Part shown: positions 5,929-62,463 of the stretch, in pieces
Numbering within the stretch: position 1 is the first letter of the stretch
How the letters are laid out: each line of letters begins with the position of its first letter
From: an uncultured Clostridia bacterium
Lineage (GTDB): Bacteria; Bacillota; Clostridia; TANB77; CAG-508
Reading direction: 5' to 3'
Assembly: GCA_949948835.1 (NCBI GenBank)
Contig: CATLHF010000001.1
Coordinates: forward strand, 68,962-132,961
DNA length: 64,000 nucleotides
The notes under the pieces: generated by a model
The model's database searches: none
What the model was told of the DNA's origin: nothing
The model's input: only the letters and a program-made list of their open reading frames with translations
Translations under genes and position numbers: made by a program

Positions 5929-6923
5929 CTAATTTGTTAGTTTATTATAGATAAAAAGACTTATTTTAGCTAATTTAAATTTATCTAATAAAAAGAATAT
6001 TTTTACAATAATTCTATTTTGTTTATCCCCTTGAAACATTTCTTTTCCCTTTAGTAACGGATTTTTATTGTATTTTATCTTATTTTTTACAAAAAAATTT
6101 ATAATTTTATTATATTCTACTTTAAAATCTGAAAACTTTAGATTTTTGCATAAAACTTTTAAATATCCAAACCCTGTGTAAATAAAAAAATACAACTCTA
6201 TATACGGACGTTTTGCTTCATTTTTAGCTTTATTCTCATCCCATACTTCATACATTTGCTCTAATATTTTTTCAATATGAATATTAGTATTGTTCTTTTG
6301 TATACTACCGTGTAATTCCTTTTTCGTTTCCTCTGTAATAATAGCCAACATAATCAAGTTCACTTACTTTATCTGTTTTTAGTAATGCCTGCATATTAAA
6401 GTAGGCATCTTCTGCAAATGCTTGGTTTGAAAAAGTAATTTTATTATCTAGCAAATATTGTTTTCTATATATTTTTCCGTGTAGCACCTAATATCGTGTA
6501 TTGGTATAATGTTTCAGATACCTTTTTATTTAGACCTTTTGTTGCATCAAAGTACTTTTCTCCACTACATACAATGTCTTGTTGTTTGGTAACAATCTCA
6601 TTTACCAATTTTTCTATGTAATCTTCTTTTATTTTATCATCACTGTCTAAAAAGATAACATACTTTCCGCTTGCATTTTGAATTCCTGTATTTCTCGCTT
6701 CTCCTGCTCCTGCATTTTCTTGTTTTACATATTTAATACGATTATCTTTTTCCTTTAAAGCGTTAATGAGTTTTTCAGAACTATCTGTAGAGCCATCATT
6801 AACAATAACAATTTCAAATTCGCCATATGTTTGTCCCATTACACAATTCAAACATTCTTCTATGTATTTTTCCGAATTATATACTGGAATAATAACAGAT
6901 ACTAATTCTTTCAATAATGACAC
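5929..6923 (-). pseudogene. GT2 glycosyltransferase split into three ORFs (two frameshifts)
   Basis: ORF 6465..6923 carries the GT2 N-terminus (VSVIIPVYNSEKYIEECL...IVNDGSTD...FLDSDD). ORFs 6305..6487 (HGKIYRKQYLL...AEDAYF) and 5929..6363 continue the same protein in other frames. Confidence 0.75.
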
Positions 6924-6924
6924 C

Positions 6925-8157
6925 TCATTCTCTATTCTTTTTATAATATTGATATTTTGCTAATGCAAAAAAAAGTAAATAATATGTTAGCATTATAACA
7001 AAATAAGATAACACGATTCCTTTTTCTCCAAGTATATATATTAAATAATTTGAAGCTATAAATGCAATTATACCTGTTACAAGATATACCCAAAACTGTT
7101 CTTTTATTTTTCGATAAATTGTTAATATAATGGTTTTTATAAATCCCATAGCATATAAAACATATGAAAATAAAATAGCAATTAACACCATAGTATAACC
7201 AGTTAAATCAACATGATAAATCAAGTTTAGTACTGGAATTCCAAGAAAATATCCAAGTAGAATTGCTAATATTCCAAATCCTATAATCATATATATTATC
7301 TTATTTTCTATTTTTTTCATTTGTTTTAGGTTATTTTCTTTATAAAGTTTTGTTAAATCGTTCATGGCTGGAGCTATAATAAATTGTGCAAATAGTGATA
7401 ACACACTTGCTGGCATCAAAATAATTCCATAAATTGCTTGAATATCATTAGTTAAATAGTTTTCAATTGCATATTTAGGTGCATTTAAAATATACATCGT
7501 TAAAAAACTGCCCGCAAATAAGAAAAATTCGCTTTTATAAATTTTCCATACATATGTAGGTGTTGCTTTTTCTTCTTTTACAATAAATGGTATGGCTTTG
7601 GGTAAATCATAACATAGTATCGTTAAAAGGCTTACTATTGGTAAACTAATACAAGCATAAATTAAATTATTGGTAAAATAATCTACTGCTACAAATAGTA
7701 AAATTCCTACTATTGATTTAATCACTAAAGACTTACCTACTAAATGTAATTTCTCATTCTTTTGTAACACTCCATAAAATACATCTCCAAATGCCTCTAG
7801 CGCTTTCCATAAGCATAAGCAAAATAGAATTGTACTTTTATACTGATCATATTTGCTAAGTATCATAAATCCAACCGTAATTATTAGCATTCCAATACAA
7901 GTAATAATTCTGCTTACGATATAATCTTTGTCCTTTATTTCTCCTTTAATATCCGTCACTTGACAGTTCCTACCAGAATAAATTGCGAAGATGTATAAAA
8001 TATAAGCAGTTGCAACAGTAATTGAAAAAATTCCTGCATCATCTAATCCATTTATTCTTGTAATCGCGATTAAAAAGAATAAGGAATTAAAGGATGCAAG
8101 AGTGCTCCCAATAGTATTCCATATGAAATTACGAAGTATGGTTTTATTTTTTATCAT
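6925..8157 (-). CDS. MOP-superfamily polysaccharide flippase (Wzx-like)
   Basis: 410 aa with about 12 TM segments and an N-terminus (LRNFIWNTIGSTLASFNSLFFLIAITR) typical of O-unit or teichoic-acid flippases. Confidence 0.7.
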   Translation of the reverse strand: MIKNKTILRNFIWNTIGSTLASFNSLFFLIAITRINGLDDAGIFSITVATAYILYIFAIYSGRNCQVTDIKGEIKDKDYIVSRIITCIGMLIITVGFMILSKYDQYKSTILFCLCLWKALEAFGDVFYGVLQKNEKLHLVGKSLVIKSIVGILLFVAVDYFTNNLIYACISLPIVSLLTILCYDLPKAIPFIVKEEKATPTYVWKIYKSEFFLFAGSFLTMYILNAPKYAIENYLTNDIQAIYGIILMPASVLSLFAQFIIAPAMNDLTKLYKENNLKQMKKIENKIIYMIIGFGILAILLGYFLGIPVLNLIYHVDLTGYTMVLIAILFSYVLYAMGFIKTIILTIYRKIKEQFWVYLVTGIIAFIASNYLIYILGEKGIVLSYFVIMLTYYLLFFALAKYQYYKKNRE

Positions 8158-32247: not shown

Positions 32248-32475
32248 TCTTTACACCACCTAAAAATTAATATAACAAAATGCTAACAATGTTATCATTT
32301 TAGATATTTTACAATAAAAATTCAGGACTATGTTTCCATAGCCCTTATATCCGTTGGCTATTTGGCAGGTGTGCCAAATCCTGCATCTCTTTTGACCATT
32401 TTCAGGTGTGTGGATGGCACTATTGTCCACTTCAAATAACCTATTTATATTGTACTTTTATTATACAACTTTTAT

Positions 32476-39447: not shown

Positions 39448-40674
39448 ATGGCACAATTACAATCAATTTATGATGTGTTAAAACAAAGAGATTTAATAAA
39501 ACAAATTACTTTTGAAGATGAATTTAAAAAAATGGCAGAAAGTGAAGAAAGGTTTTCTGTCTATTTAGGCATTGACCCTACTGCAGATAGTATTCATATT
39601 GGACACTTTATTCCTCTTATGATGATGTCTTATTTTCAAAAATGTGGTCATAGACCAATTATCTTAGTAGGTGGTGGAACTGCCTTTATTGGTGACCCAA
39701 GTGGGAAAACGGATATGAGGAAAATGCTTACCAAAGAAGAAATTTCAAAAAATGTAGATAACATCATAAAACAAGTAAGTAAATTCATCTCTTTTGAAGG
39801 CGATAATGCTGGAATTATTGTTAATAACGGTGACTGGATTTTAGATTTAAATTATATGGAATTTATTCGTACATATGGTGTATATTTTAATGTAAACCGT
39901 ATGTTAGATGCAGAATGTTTTAAACAACGTATGGAAAAAGGTCTTACCTTTTTTGAATTAAATTACATGTTAATGCAAAGTTACGACTTTTTACACTTAT
40001 TTGAAACCAAAGGTTGTAAAGTTGAAATTGGTGGAGATGACCAATGGTCTAACATGCTTGCAGGTGTTGATTTAATTCGTAAAATTCACCAAAATGGAAG
40101 CTTTTGTGTAACTTGCCCTCTTTTATTAAATTCGGAAGGTAAAAAAATGGGGAAAACCGTAAGTGGTGCTTTATGGCTAGATGCTACTAAGACTTCTCCA
40201 TATGAGTTTTACCAATACTGGAGAAATATTGGAGATAAAGAAGTTTATGATGTTTTAAGAATGCTTACCTACTTACCAATGGATGAAGTAAAAAGACTTG
40301 CTTCTTTACCAGGAGAACAAATCAATGAAGCCAAAAAAATTGCAGCTTTTGAAATCACAAAACTAATTCACGGTGAAGAAGAAGCTTTAAAAGCCGAAGA
40401 AGCTTCAAAAGCCCTATTTGAAGGCTCTGGTTCTCTAGAAAATATGCCTACTGTAAAAGTAGAAAGCACAAGCATTTCTATTTTAGATGCTATTTTATTA
40501 ACTGGTATAGCTCCTTCAAAAGGTCAAGCAAGAACTTTAATTTCACAGGGTGGAATTAGCTTAAACGATAACAAAATTGAAGATACAACTTATGTGCTAT
40601 CTGAAAATGATTTTACAGACGGATATGCAATTCTAAAAAAAGGAAAAAAAGTATTTTATAAATTAGAAAAATAA
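39448..40674 (+). CDS. tyrS: tyrosine--tRNA ligase
   Basis: GIDPTADSIHIGHFIP (HIGH) and KMGKT (KMSKS), with a C-terminal S4-like domain. 408 aa. Confidence 0.95.
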   Translation: MAQLQSIYDVLKQRDLIKQITFEDEFKKMAESEERFSVYLGIDPTADSIHIGHFIPLMMMSYFQKCGHRPIILVGGGTAFIGDPSGKTDMRKMLTKEEISKNVDNIIKQVSKFISFEGDNAGIIVNNGDWILDLNYMEFIRTYGVYFNVNRMLDAECFKQRMEKGLTFFELNYMLMQSYDFLHLFETKGCKVEIGGDDQWSNMLAGVDLIRKIHQNGSFCVTCPLLLNSEGKKMGKTVSGALWLDATKTSPYEFYQYWRNIGDKEVYDVLRMLTYLPMDEVKRLASLPGEQINEAKKIAAFEITKLIHGEEEALKAEEASKALFEGSGSLENMPTVKVESTSISILDAILLTGIAPSKGQARTLISQGGISLNDNKIEDTTYVLSENDFTDGYAILKKGKKVFYKLEK

Positions 40675-45166: not shown

Positions 45167-45949
45167 TTAGGTGTTGGTAAATCTTCTGGCATCGTTCCGA
45201 CCTGCTTGTTTAATTGCTTTTTTAACAATTTTTCCAATTTTGTTATGTGTGTCACAAGCTTTCTTTTCAGTATCAACTTTATCTCTTTTTAATCTTGATT
45301 CAGTTTGCGTAATACGAAATAGATTAGCTGCAAGTTCTTCACTTCCCATATTATCCAAAATATCTTCTCTATATCTTAATCCTTTTCTTTTAGCAATGTC
45401 ATCAGCAGTTTCTCCATTATATAGACCTTTATATCCCTCATTATGAAACCTATCAAAATTTTTAACTCCTGCATTTTTAGCAGTTTGATTAAGTGAGTAA
45501 TTACCTTTCTTTGTTAAATTTCTTTGATAAAATCTCTTTTCATCTTCTGTTAACGAGCTATATTCTTTTTCACTAATTTCTTGCTTTCTCGTTTGAATTG
45601 CAAAATATGTTTGTGCAAGAGCAATAACTTTTTTCCTAGTATCACCGTTTTGTGCTATTAAATAACATGCATAACGTGTCAATTTATAGTCTGTAATGTT
45701 CTTTGTTGCACCTTTAGGCATTTTTATCGTTTTGTCGACGTCGACAAAATGCTCAAATGCACTAATTCCACTGTTTTTACAAGATTCTTTTGCTTTCTGT
45801 ATTACTCCTTCAAATTTTCGCCATTCCTTATAGCTTAAAACAATTTGTAGCTCTCTTGCATACCAATATTCAATTCCATTTTCGTCAATGTGTTTAATGT
45901 CTTCAAAAGTTTGGTTGTTACAATTTTTCTCTTTTTCTAGTTTATCCAT
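45167..45949 (-). CDS. dinD: DNA damage-inducible protein D-like (DinD / Bro-N-like N-terminus)
   Basis: 260 aa reading ...IEYWYARELQIVLSYKEWRKFEGVIQKAKESC...YKLTRYACYLIAQNGD... Confidence 0.55.
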   Translation of the reverse strand: MDKLEKEKNCNNQTFEDIKHIDENGIEYWYARELQIVLSYKEWRKFEGVIQKAKESCKNSGISAFEHFVDVDKTIKMPKGATKNITDYKLTRYACYLIAQNGDTRKKVIALAQTYFAIQTRKQEISEKEYSSLTEDEKRFYQRNLTKKGNYSLNQTAKNAGVKNFDRFHNEGYKGLYNGETADDIAKRKGLRYREDILDNMGSEELAANLFRITQTESRLKRDKVDTEKKACDTHNKIGKIVKKAIKQAGRNDARRFTNT

Positions 45950-46095
45950 ATAAAACCATCTCTTTTGTGTTTTGTCTTTTTGTTATTATATATAAGCGTT
46001 ATAATAATTGCAATAGTTTTTACGAAAATTTGTTTTAAAATTCATAGATAAAAACTCCTTGAAATAAAATTTGATTTTGAAATAAATGTAATGAA

Positions 46096-46128
46096 TAGTA
46101 AAAGCCACAACCGTATAGTTGTGGCTTT
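46096..46128 (-). terminator. terminator of the tRNA operon
   Basis: The minus strand reads AAAAGCCACAA-CTATACGG-TTGTGGCTTTT immediately after the CCA end of tRNA-Tyr. Confidence 0.7.
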
Positions 46129-46433
46129 TGGTGGACAGGGAAGGATTCGAACCTTCGTACTCGTATGAGAACAGATTTCTTACTACTATAGTTTTCACTA
46201 CCAATTTCTTGTTTGTAGTCTGGACTTTCTCTTTATCTTTTTTAAGATACCAGGTATAAAGTCTCTACACTCGGAAATTTCTTTCCTAGCTCGGGATTAT
46301 CATCAACTTAACTTGCTAAGACTTCCCCGAATTAGCCCGGTTTTCACCACAAAATCACTTTTGTGGGCTGCAATTTCTGCTTTTTTAAGCAAAGCATACA
46401 GTCTGCCGCCTTTAGCCACTCGGCCACCTGTCC
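46129..46433 (-). tRNA. tRNA-Tyr(GUA), type II long variable arm, encoded CCA, interrupted by a 219-nt intron
   Basis: Exon 1 (46433->46398) is GGACAGG TG GCC GAGTGGCTAAA GGC G GCAGA CTGT. Exon 2 (46178->46129) is AAA TCTGT TCTCATACGAGTAC GAAGG TTCGAAT CCTTC CCTGTCC A CCA. Joined, they give an 86-nt cloverleaf with the loop CUGUAAA. Confidence 0.85.
46179..46397 (-). ncRNA. group I intron (small, ORF-less) inserted between anticodon nt 35 and 36
   Basis: It follows a U and ends in G. It carries a GCAG guide; P2 CCACAAAA-GTGA-TTTTGTGG; P3 ACCGGG/CCTGGT; P4 TTCGGGG/TCCCGAG; P6 GGAAA-GAAA-TTTCC; P7 G-A(bulge)-GAC/GTCC; P8 ATCTT-AAAA-AAGAT; and an A-rich J8/7. Confidence 0.8.
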
Positions 46434-46449
46434 ATATTTAGTTAATAAA

Positions 46450-46526
46450 TGGTGCGCCCTCAAGGATTCGAACCTTGGACCCACCGGTTATGAGCCGGTT
46501 GCTCTGACCAACTGAGCTAAGGGCGC
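46450..46526 (-). tRNA. tRNA with CAU anticodon (elongator Met or lysidine-modified Ile2; not an initiator)
   Basis: GCGCCCT TA GCTC AGTTGGTCA GAGC A ACCGG CTCATAA CCGGT GGGTC CAAGG TTCGAAT CCTTG AGGGCGC A CCA. G1-C72 is paired and there is no GGG/CCC anticodon stem. Confidence 0.9.
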
Positions 46527-46539
46527 GTGTCAAGTTGGT

Positions 46540-46613
<74 letters not shown>

Positions 46614-46636: not shown

Positions 46637-46665
46637 ATTATAAGGGTTATTAAATTGTTTGTCAA
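46637..46665 (-). promoter_or_regulatory. consensus sigma-A promoter of the tRNA operon
   Basis: The minus strand reads TTGACA-aacaatttaataaccct(17)-TATAAT, about 24 nt upstream of tRNA-Gly. Confidence 0.7.
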
Positions 46666-62213: not shown

Positions 62214-62450
62214 TCAAAAAAGCTCCACCCTGTATAAGGGTGAAGCAATTGTTCACGGTACCACCTTAATTTATAGTATTTCTACTATATCTTAATTAGC
62301 TTTTAACGTGGCTTAAACGAATATTCTTACTTTATTTCAAAATATTAACTCCAAAGCTACTTCAATTTGTCTTTTTCTTATAGAAACTCTCAGCCCATGA
62401 TTTCTACTCTCTTAAAGCAAGTGCAAACCTACTCCTCTTCTTCCTTGTTT
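62214..62450 (-). promoter_or_regulatory. T-box riboswitch leader of valS (candidate specifier GUA = Val)
   Basis: The minus strand carries the T-box sequence AATTAAGGTGGTACCGTG (62271->62254). The terminator is GCTTCACCCT-TATAC-AGGGTGGAGC + T6. Stem I elements are AGAGAGTAG, GCTGAGAG and TTGAAGTAGC. Confidence 0.85.
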
Positions 62451-62463
62451 TTCATATACCCCT

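Follow-up and report, generated by a model that had tools for sequence, protein, structure and literature searches.

The window, a 64-kb stretch of DNA from an uncultured Clostridia bacterium (contig CATLHF010000001.1), very probably carries a live tRNA-Tyr(GUA) gene at the end of a Gly-Met-Tyr operon; the gene is split by a compact, IC3-like group I intron that lacks an open reading frame (ORF) and is to be spliced out. The insertion point lies between U35 and A36 of the anticodon loop. This split gene, on the minus strand, was the sole tRNA-Tyr gene found within the window. A sequence-only reading of the same DNA had proposed two tRNA-Tyr(GUA) exons separated by a 219-nt insert after U35, and these coordinates proved exact. 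The joined exons were called by ARAGORN as tRNA-Tyr(gta) of 86 nt, with the features of a bacterial tRNA-Tyr (GUA anticodon, long variable arm, G1-C72, A73 and a cloverleaf), and ARAGORN with intron search found the split gene with a 219-nt intron in the identical place, between actgt and aaatc. As that reading had predicted for standard annotation, the gene was missed by default ARAGORN and by Rfam at gathering thresholds; the neighbouring tRNA-Gly and tRNA-Met were detected.

Conservation of the intron in related genomes

The insert was searched with the Rfam group I intron model RF00028 (Intron_gpI), the check that the sequence-only reading had put forward. The model aligned over its full length (model positions 1-253) with 46401..46198 on the minus strand, at E 4.4e-10 in a 451-nt search, but the score, 44.0 bits, was under the gathering score of 50. 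The whole-window run at gathering thresholds gave no intron match, and the intron was seen only in the permissive local search. Since the RF00028 match alone was only suggestive, relatives were sought.

The scan for relatives used a pattern of the 5' exon only, with the loop barred from continuing as an intact gene, over one genome per bacterial species, and gave at least 120 loci. All counts of split genes given below are among the matches listed. The 3' exon (AAATCYG...GGTTCGAATCC) was located 197-591 nt downstream in 101 loci, which contained 100 distinct introns. A G stood directly before AAAUC in 101 of 101 split genes (omegaG, the last intron nucleotide, 46179 in the window), and a U stood directly before every one of the 100 distinct introns. 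The same split gene was found in about 100 species-level genomes. About 17 of the 120 listed genome loci were rejected as introns; they were tRNA-Tyr genes whose loop had a variant base in position 37 or 38, or had matched by chance. Loci L030, L054, L068, L090, L094, L105, and L120 (Atribacterota / Caldatribacterium) were exon-pattern false positives of this kind: they contained an intact tRNA-Tyr with the loop CUGUAGA, in which position 37 is G and not the usual A.

About 87 of the split genes came from metagenome-assembled genomes (MAGs) of gut bacteria with 28-30% G+C, labelled Clostridia or Clostridium sp. CAG:354, CAG:567, or CAG:575, from human, ruminant, rabbit, and chicken hosts. Identity of the window intron with the other introns from gut Clostridia was 72-98%, and the flanks of the nearest genome loci were only 79-82% identical to those of the window. 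The intron of L056 (MAG RGIG8482, water deer cecum) was 97.9% identical to that of the window, whereas the flanking genes were only about 82% identical, which fits either strong constraint on the ribozyme or a recent exchange of the intron. Another 13 split genes belonged to a different lineage (12 Candidatus Omnitrophota MAGs and one MAG labelled Planctomycetales), and one came from a Bacilli MAG.

Covariation and secondary structure

We drew a P1-P9 model of 67 pairs on the window sequence and examined it in an alignment of 99 intron sequences (6,414 pair cells). Standard pairs were present in 97.5% of the cells, compared with 36-43% when the 3' partners were slid by 1-3 columns. Changes on both sides were seen in 39 of the 67 pairs (572 cells), and none of 500 shuffles reached any observed measure of the model. 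The four pairs between exon and guide in P1 (CUGU/GCAG, including the wobble of G with U-1, the last exon base) were invariant in 99 of 99 sequences, and P7 was 100% paired with five of its six pairs invariant, as would be expected of a splice-site helix and the predicted guanosine pocket. We infer that G46263-C46223 is the guanosine-binding pair. Other helices varied while keeping their pairing, and covariation supported the conserved P3-P8 core with its P3/P7 pseudoknot. Pair 18:37 of P1a occurred as GC, AU, or CG, one U-A pair of P5 was replaced by C-G in 38 sequences, and P9b occurred as UAGU/ACUA, UAGC/GCUA, UAAC/GUUA, or CAAU/AUUG around an invariant GAAA loop (L9b). The L2 loop was of the GNRA type in nearly all gut-lineage members of the alignment. 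The minimum free energy fold of the window sequence alone recovered P1, P1a, P2, P4, P6a, P8, and the P9 junction (z = -3.37).

The covariance model, the covariation, and the comparisons with empty sites described below backed the group I core that had been read from the letters (U-1, omegaG, GCAG guide, P2-P8), and most of its helices proved right. Other parts of that drawing were revised. Two GCAG guides had been offered; the one at intron nt 27-30 (46371-46368) was invariant in 99 of 99 sequences, but the one at nt 18-21 was 45.6% paired and not conserved, and belongs to the covarying P1 extension hairpin. P5 drawn as CTTA/TAAG was 69.7% paired, equal to the shuffles, and found no comparative support in the alignment test; the supported pairs were UC/GA and CAA/UUG. 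The helix GGAAA-GAAA-TTTCC is real but had been mislabelled as P6: it is P6a, and P6 proper is GCU/AGU. For P3 (ACCGGG/CCTGGT), the inner five pairs held, four of them covarying, and the outermost A-U was removed, since it clashes with a P8 pair in which its U covaries. The drawing had also lacked the conserved P9 three-way junction with its GAAA hairpin.

The sequence might instead be a chimera from assembly, or an unrelated insertion with no more than a likeness to a ribozyme; the sub-threshold Rfam score is the only point in favor of this. However, at least three independent sequencing runs gave contigs with the identical intron-bearing allele (L001, L003, and L004, with the whole gene in L003), and 100 distinct homologous introns covary at the same site. 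Because the same architecture recurs at one site in so many introns with strong covariation, the insert is not a matter of chance; the probability that we give to an artefact is vanishingly small, and on this comparative evidence the group I intron in tRNA-Tyr is genuine.

The intron in tRNA-Tyr is almost certainly functional, and it is probably self-splicing. Several observations weigh against this interpretation. The RF00028 score falls short of the cut-off, and RF00028 reported neither of two close relatives' introns at E<=1e-3 in a 47-kb search. P10 has at most 2 bp, both A-U. The peripheral helices are very A+U-rich, and efficient folding may need protein or high Mg2+. Such a periphery would allow for a protein helper: the intron may be a genuine group I intron that splices inefficiently alone in the cell and needs a host factor, for example an RNA chaperone, a protein like a maturase, or an enzyme that binds tRNA. 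In line with such a need, P2, P6a, P8, and P9 are short and almost all A-U, the intron is ORF-less, and its Rfam score is weak; many organellar group I introns need protein helpers, such as CYT-18. On the other hand, every element for autonomous catalysis is present and conserved, classical bacterial tRNA group I introns, which are homologous and of similar size, self-splice in vitro, and the nearby tyrosyl-tRNA synthetase has standard bacterial domains only. We consider dependence on a protein rather unlikely.

Intact alleles at the same locus

The spliced junction was used to scan a metagenome collection, which gave at least 120 loci with intact tRNA-Tyr (28% G+C). Many of the intact genes, among the matches listed, were identical to predicted spliced products, and the one in L200 was the product predicted for the window. 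Several empty loci were close enough to intron-bearing ones to be aligned. L151 (empty) was 98.7% identical to L061 (Clostridium sp. CAG:354_28_25) over 3,144 nt; the similarity stopped exactly at the 5' splice site and resumed exactly after omegaG. L211 (empty) was 99.3% identical to L012 over 1,684 nt, L176 (empty) was 93.3% identical to L006 over 6 kb and in the 3' exon, and L150 and L190 (both empty) were 95% identical to L124 over 3 kb, beginning exactly at the 3' splice site. As a proxy at the DNA level for the excision junctions, the intron-less alleles break exactly between 46398 and 46397 and between 46179 and 46178. The intron boundaries were thus fixed independently of any model. 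In addition, L166 was syntenic with the window, having tRNA-Met, an intact tRNA-Tyr, and a Bro-N gene. Of the intron-bearing relatives, 67 of 84 had tRNA-Met immediately upstream, as did 69 of 95 without the intron, and no locus with both split and intact tRNA-Tyr was present among the fetched loci.

Gut metagenomes commonly contain intact tRNA-Tyr genes that have the exon sequences of the split ones, which would be compatible with the split gene being a dead remnant, a decaying pseudogene whose insert no longer splices while an intact tRNA-Tyr elsewhere does the work. However, the intact genes stand at the same locus, with near-identical flanks that break at the splice sites, and as far as the data go they look like alleles at one orthologous locus and not second copies. 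Such a presence/absence polymorphism argues against a remnant, and so do the invariant P7 and guide, the covarying helices, and the predicted consensus promoter and terminator, which have been kept. The tRNA itself has also been maintained across the intron in about 100 species, with a perfect cloverleaf and compensatory changes. The acceptor stem, examined in 30 distinct exon pairs, was paired in 208 of 210 cells and had double changes at 3:70, 5:68, and 7:66; A73 was present in 101 of 101 split genes, and CCA was encoded in 95 of 101. A dead remnant is therefore very unlikely, and a live tRNA-Tyr gene with an intron to be spliced out remains the preferred reading. The intron behaves as a mobile or losable element and is widespread in a low-GC clade of gut Clostridia.

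In the pairs L151/L061 and L211/L012, whose upstream flanks were 98.7-99.3% identical, similarity ended about 56 nt past the splice junction, at the tRNA end. The DNA downstream of tRNA-Tyr thus differs between near-identical strains, and the 3' end of the tRNA may be a boundary of integration or recombination. The split tRNA-Tyr genes of L023, L065, L104, and L122 had the acceptor stem GGGCGGG/CCCUCCC, with a C4:U69 mismatch and a compensated U10-A25 pair in the D stem.

Relation to known introns

A survey of 80,413 bacterial genomes, which used RF00028 at low threshold together with ARAGORN intron calls, raised the number of interrupted bacterial tRNA types from 4 to 21 (Williams 2020, bioRxiv 10.1101/2020.01.27.920355). 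The seed alignment of that work, from which the rows compared here were taken, includes Mba143.Tyr.4Ug, an intron in tRNA-Tyr after the 4th loop nucleotide, with U-1 and omegaG. The sequence-only reading had called a tRNA-Tyr host with insertion after position 35 unusual, a view that is out of date: because Mba143.Tyr.4Ug has the same setting, neither host nor position is unprecedented. Our search of the literature for tRNA-Tyr together with group I introns gave nothing relevant besides this work, and a 2014 review and a 2025 group I database were silent on tRNA-Tyr.

Mba143.Tyr.4Ug also has the GCAG guide and the P1-P9 layout of the window intron. However, the two were only about 50% identical, which places the window intron in a different lineage, and the P1 extension hairpin and the P9 three-way junction of the window intron were not in the seed row. 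The window lineage was, moreover, followed in about 87 species of gut Clostridia and showed presence/absence polymorphism. The tRNA-Tyr introns of the Omnitrophota were 45-52% identical to that of the window. By these sequence comparisons, at least three divergent intron lineages occupy the CUGU/A site of tRNA-Tyr: that of the gut Clostridia and Bacilli, that of the Omnitrophota, and that of the published seed. Set against the seed rows, the window intron is a new, well-populated lineage of an already described kind.

The Omnitrophota-type lineage comprised L011, L022, L024, L029, L048, L055, L083, L084, L086, L097, L111, and L113, as well as L112, which was cut by the locus end. These introns had 197-243 nt, a minimal P1, and a simple GUAA-capped P9, and CCA was not encoded in six of the split genes. 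MAG JAZDFW01 had two intron-bearing tRNA-Tyr genes on two contigs (L022 and L048). The intron of L011 scored 93.6 bits with RF00028, and that of the Bacilli relative (L114) 50.8 bits; both same-site homologues are above the gathering score.

The best-matching seed was Wba81.Asp.4Ug, with 58% identity. It is located at the same position 4 after CUGU, has a GCAG guide, and has the motifs CUAAUUCGGGGAA, AAUCCCGAGC, and GUGUAGAGACUA in common with the window intron, but its host is tRNA-Asp (GUC anticodon) and its P9 is a simple hairpin. The likeness to the Azoarcus tRNA-Ile(CAU) intron (IC3), which the sequence-only reading had pointed out, was borne out in the seed row Aol6.Ile2.5Ug: AAUUCGG(C/G)GAA, GUGUAGAGACU, and AGUCCAG are common to both introns. 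The Azoarcus intron is likewise compact (about 200 nt), ORF-less, and in the anticodon loop, and has a P7 with bulged A, a GNRA L2, and a GAAA L9; its receptor-like P5 is CCUAAGC/UAUGG, compared with UCUUAGC/GAUGA in the window. It differs in its place, after position 36 (site 5) of another tRNA, in its G+C-rich composition, and in its overall sequence (44% identity). Its self-splicing and structure have been established experimentally, whereas those of the window intron are predicted. The cyanobacterial/plastid tRNA-Leu(UAA) intron (Ncf2.Leu.3Ug) has the same family core, a P9 three-way junction with a GCNGCGAAAGCNGU-type hairpin, and exons that can stay paired in the anticodon stem, but it interrupts tRNA-Leu at site 3 (after U34) and was 49% identical to the window intron. 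Across these seed rows, with identities of 44-58%, the core signature of IC3 tRNA introns (AAUUCGGGGAA, AAUCCCGAGC, GUGUAGAGACU, AAAGUCCAG, and the GAAA P9 hairpin) aligned with the window intron, and a counterpart of the P9b hairpin, the gcagcgaaagcugu hairpin, was present in IC3 seeds and classical tRNA introns. The label IC3-like is used for this resemblance only.

The intron of the Bacilli relative (JAFRIJ010000002.1, goat jejunum; 6676-7266) was 591 nt long and at the same tRNA-Tyr site, and its core was 69% identical to that of the window. An ORF inserted in its P1/P2 matched PF11645 (PDDEXK_5), a PD-(D/E)XK endonuclease family, with E 9e-7. The frame was open from 6680, the first canonical start was a TTG at 6812, and none stood ahead of the domain; the ORF may be a decaying homing endonuclease gene. 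We take PF11645 to be the family of I-Ssp6803I, the PD-(D/E)XK homing endonuclease of the Synechocystis tRNA-fMet intron. The likeness to the Synechocystis intron lies in this ORF of the Bacilli relative; the window intron has no ORF. The endonuclease ORF suggests how the lineage moves or once moved.

Viral contigs were scanned for the exact core and for the exon junction, with 0 and 0 matches, and no phage contig with a split tRNA-Tyr was found in these scans. BLAST against phage genomes gave only partial matches of about 60 nt to other group I introns. One was in a crAss-like Bacteroides phage (L245; Kolpuevirus sp. 'frurule', OQ198718.1, 75280-77741), in which the replicative helicase is annotated in two pieces around a GIY endonuclease gene; the 62 nt before the second helicase piece were 87% identical to the 3' end of the window intron (P7-P9), the match covering its last 59 nt. 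RF00028 did not report this helicase-splitting intron at E<=1e-3.

Proposed splicing mechanism

The following steps are modelled on characterised group I introns by homology. P1 would arise between the guide UGCAG (intron nt 26-30) and C32-U35 together with the first intron base, and the U35.G wobble would mark the splice site. Because P1 takes only these loop nucleotides and the first intron base, the anticodon stem is unused and could stay paired, holding both exons together. A free guanosine would bind the P7 pocket (G46263-C46223, beside the bulged A46264) and attack after U35. OmegaG would then fill the pocket, the 3'-OH of U35 would attack after omegaG, and the exons would be ligated to give the loop CUGUAAA. 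The GNRA loop of L2 and the GAAA loop of L9b probably make contact with P8 and with P5/P5a, which is receptor-like; such Azoarcus-like tertiary contacts are plausible by analogy.

Features of the locus

The coordinates of the predicted operon and of the intron elements are listed in Table 1.

Table 1. Coordinates of the tRNA operon and of the elements of the split tRNA-Tyr gene in the window
Feature	Position	Strand	Basis or detail
Sigma-70-type promoter of tRNA operon, TTGACA-17-TATAAT	46637..46665	-	12/12 consensus match; predicted from consensus only
tRNA-Gly(UCC), operon gene 1	46540..46613	-	ARAGORN; Rfam tRNA 68.9 bits
tRNA-Met(CAU), directly upstream of tRNA-Tyr	46450..46526	-	ARAGORN; Rfam tRNA 73.5 bits
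tRNA-Tyr(GUA) 5' exon, 36 nt, ends CUGU	46398..46433	-	Acceptor 5' strand, D arm, 5' anticodon stem, loop C32-U35
Group I intron, 219 nt, IC3-like, ORF-less, ends in G	46179..46397	-	RF00028, covariation, empty sites
P1 and enclosed P1a	46368..46401	-	P1 CUGUA 46401-46397 / UGCAG 46372-46368; wobble U46398.G46372 at splice site; P1a 46393-46387 / 46382-46375
P2 hairpin CCACAAAA-GUGA-UUUUGUGG, GNRA-type loop	46347..46366	-	8/8 pairs with both-sided changes; 99.5% paired
Catalytic core, whole	46222..46340	-	P1-P9 model on window sequence
P3	46340-36/46254-50	-	Double changes in 4/5 pairs
P4	46330-26/46295-91	-	Double changes in 2/5 pairs
P5	46321-20/46301-00	-	UC/GA
P5a	46315-13/46306-04	-	CAA/UUG
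P6	46290-88/46271-69	-	GCU/AGU
P6a	46286-82/46277-73	-	Double changes in 5/5 pairs
P7	G46265 + 46263-59 / 46227-22, bulged A46264	-	G-(A)-GACUU / AAGUCC
P8	46249-44/46239-34	-	Double changes in 5/6 pairs
A-rich J8/7	46233-46228	-	
P9 three-way junction	46182..46219	-	P9 ACUAC/GUAGU; P9a CAA/UUG; P9b UAGU-GAAA-ACUA
tRNA-Tyr 3' exon, 50 nt, starts AAA	46129..46178	-	A36-A38, 3' anticodon stem, long variable arm, T arm, acceptor 3' strand, A73, encoded CCA
Intrinsic terminator-like hairpin, 13 pairs, then T run	46100..46129	-	Predicted, consensus scan only

The ORF list of the window contains an ORF at 45986-46204 on the minus strand (72 codons, TTG start). It overlaps the 3' end of the intron, the 3' exon, and the terminator and is thus most likely a spurious call, as the sequence-only reading had held. 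The gene downstream of tRNA-Tyr (45167-45949) codes for a protein with a Bro-N domain; such proteins are often phage-associated. The tyrosyl-tRNA synthetase gene (39448-40674, plus strand) is about 5.5 kb from the split tRNA-Tyr and has standard bacterial domains, including an S4-like C-terminal domain; no T-box was reported upstream of it. The remaining Rfam matches above gathering score in the window were a T-box leader at 62233-62454 (minus strand, 108.7 bits) and a skipping-rope RNA at 32357-32440 (minus strand, 64.2 bits), with no others.

Implications

Because default tRNA finders and Rfam gathering thresholds miss the split gene, genomes of this gut clade will seem to be without tRNA-Tyr and to have a spurious ORF in its place. 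It is conceivable, though quite improbable in our estimate, that in intron-carrying strains this is the only tRNA-Tyr gene, and that all tyrosine decoding in widespread human and animal gut Clostridia depends on a ribozyme step. If that were true, GTP or Mg2+ status could regulate the step, or the step could shield the DNA or RNA of the anticodon loop from site-specific nucleases. The understanding of how group I introns act is unchanged, and the finding, which would not surprise a specialist, is of use for annotation and for intron dynamics. The list of bacterial tRNAs split by introns has recently grown, and a well-documented lineage now joins it. Within one species, strains that have the intron and strains that lack it would offer a natural experiment on its cost or benefit, and near-identical strains differing in an ORF-less intron, together with a relative whose intron still has a PD-(D/E)XK ORF, could serve studies of how introns are gained and lost in abundant gut bacteria.

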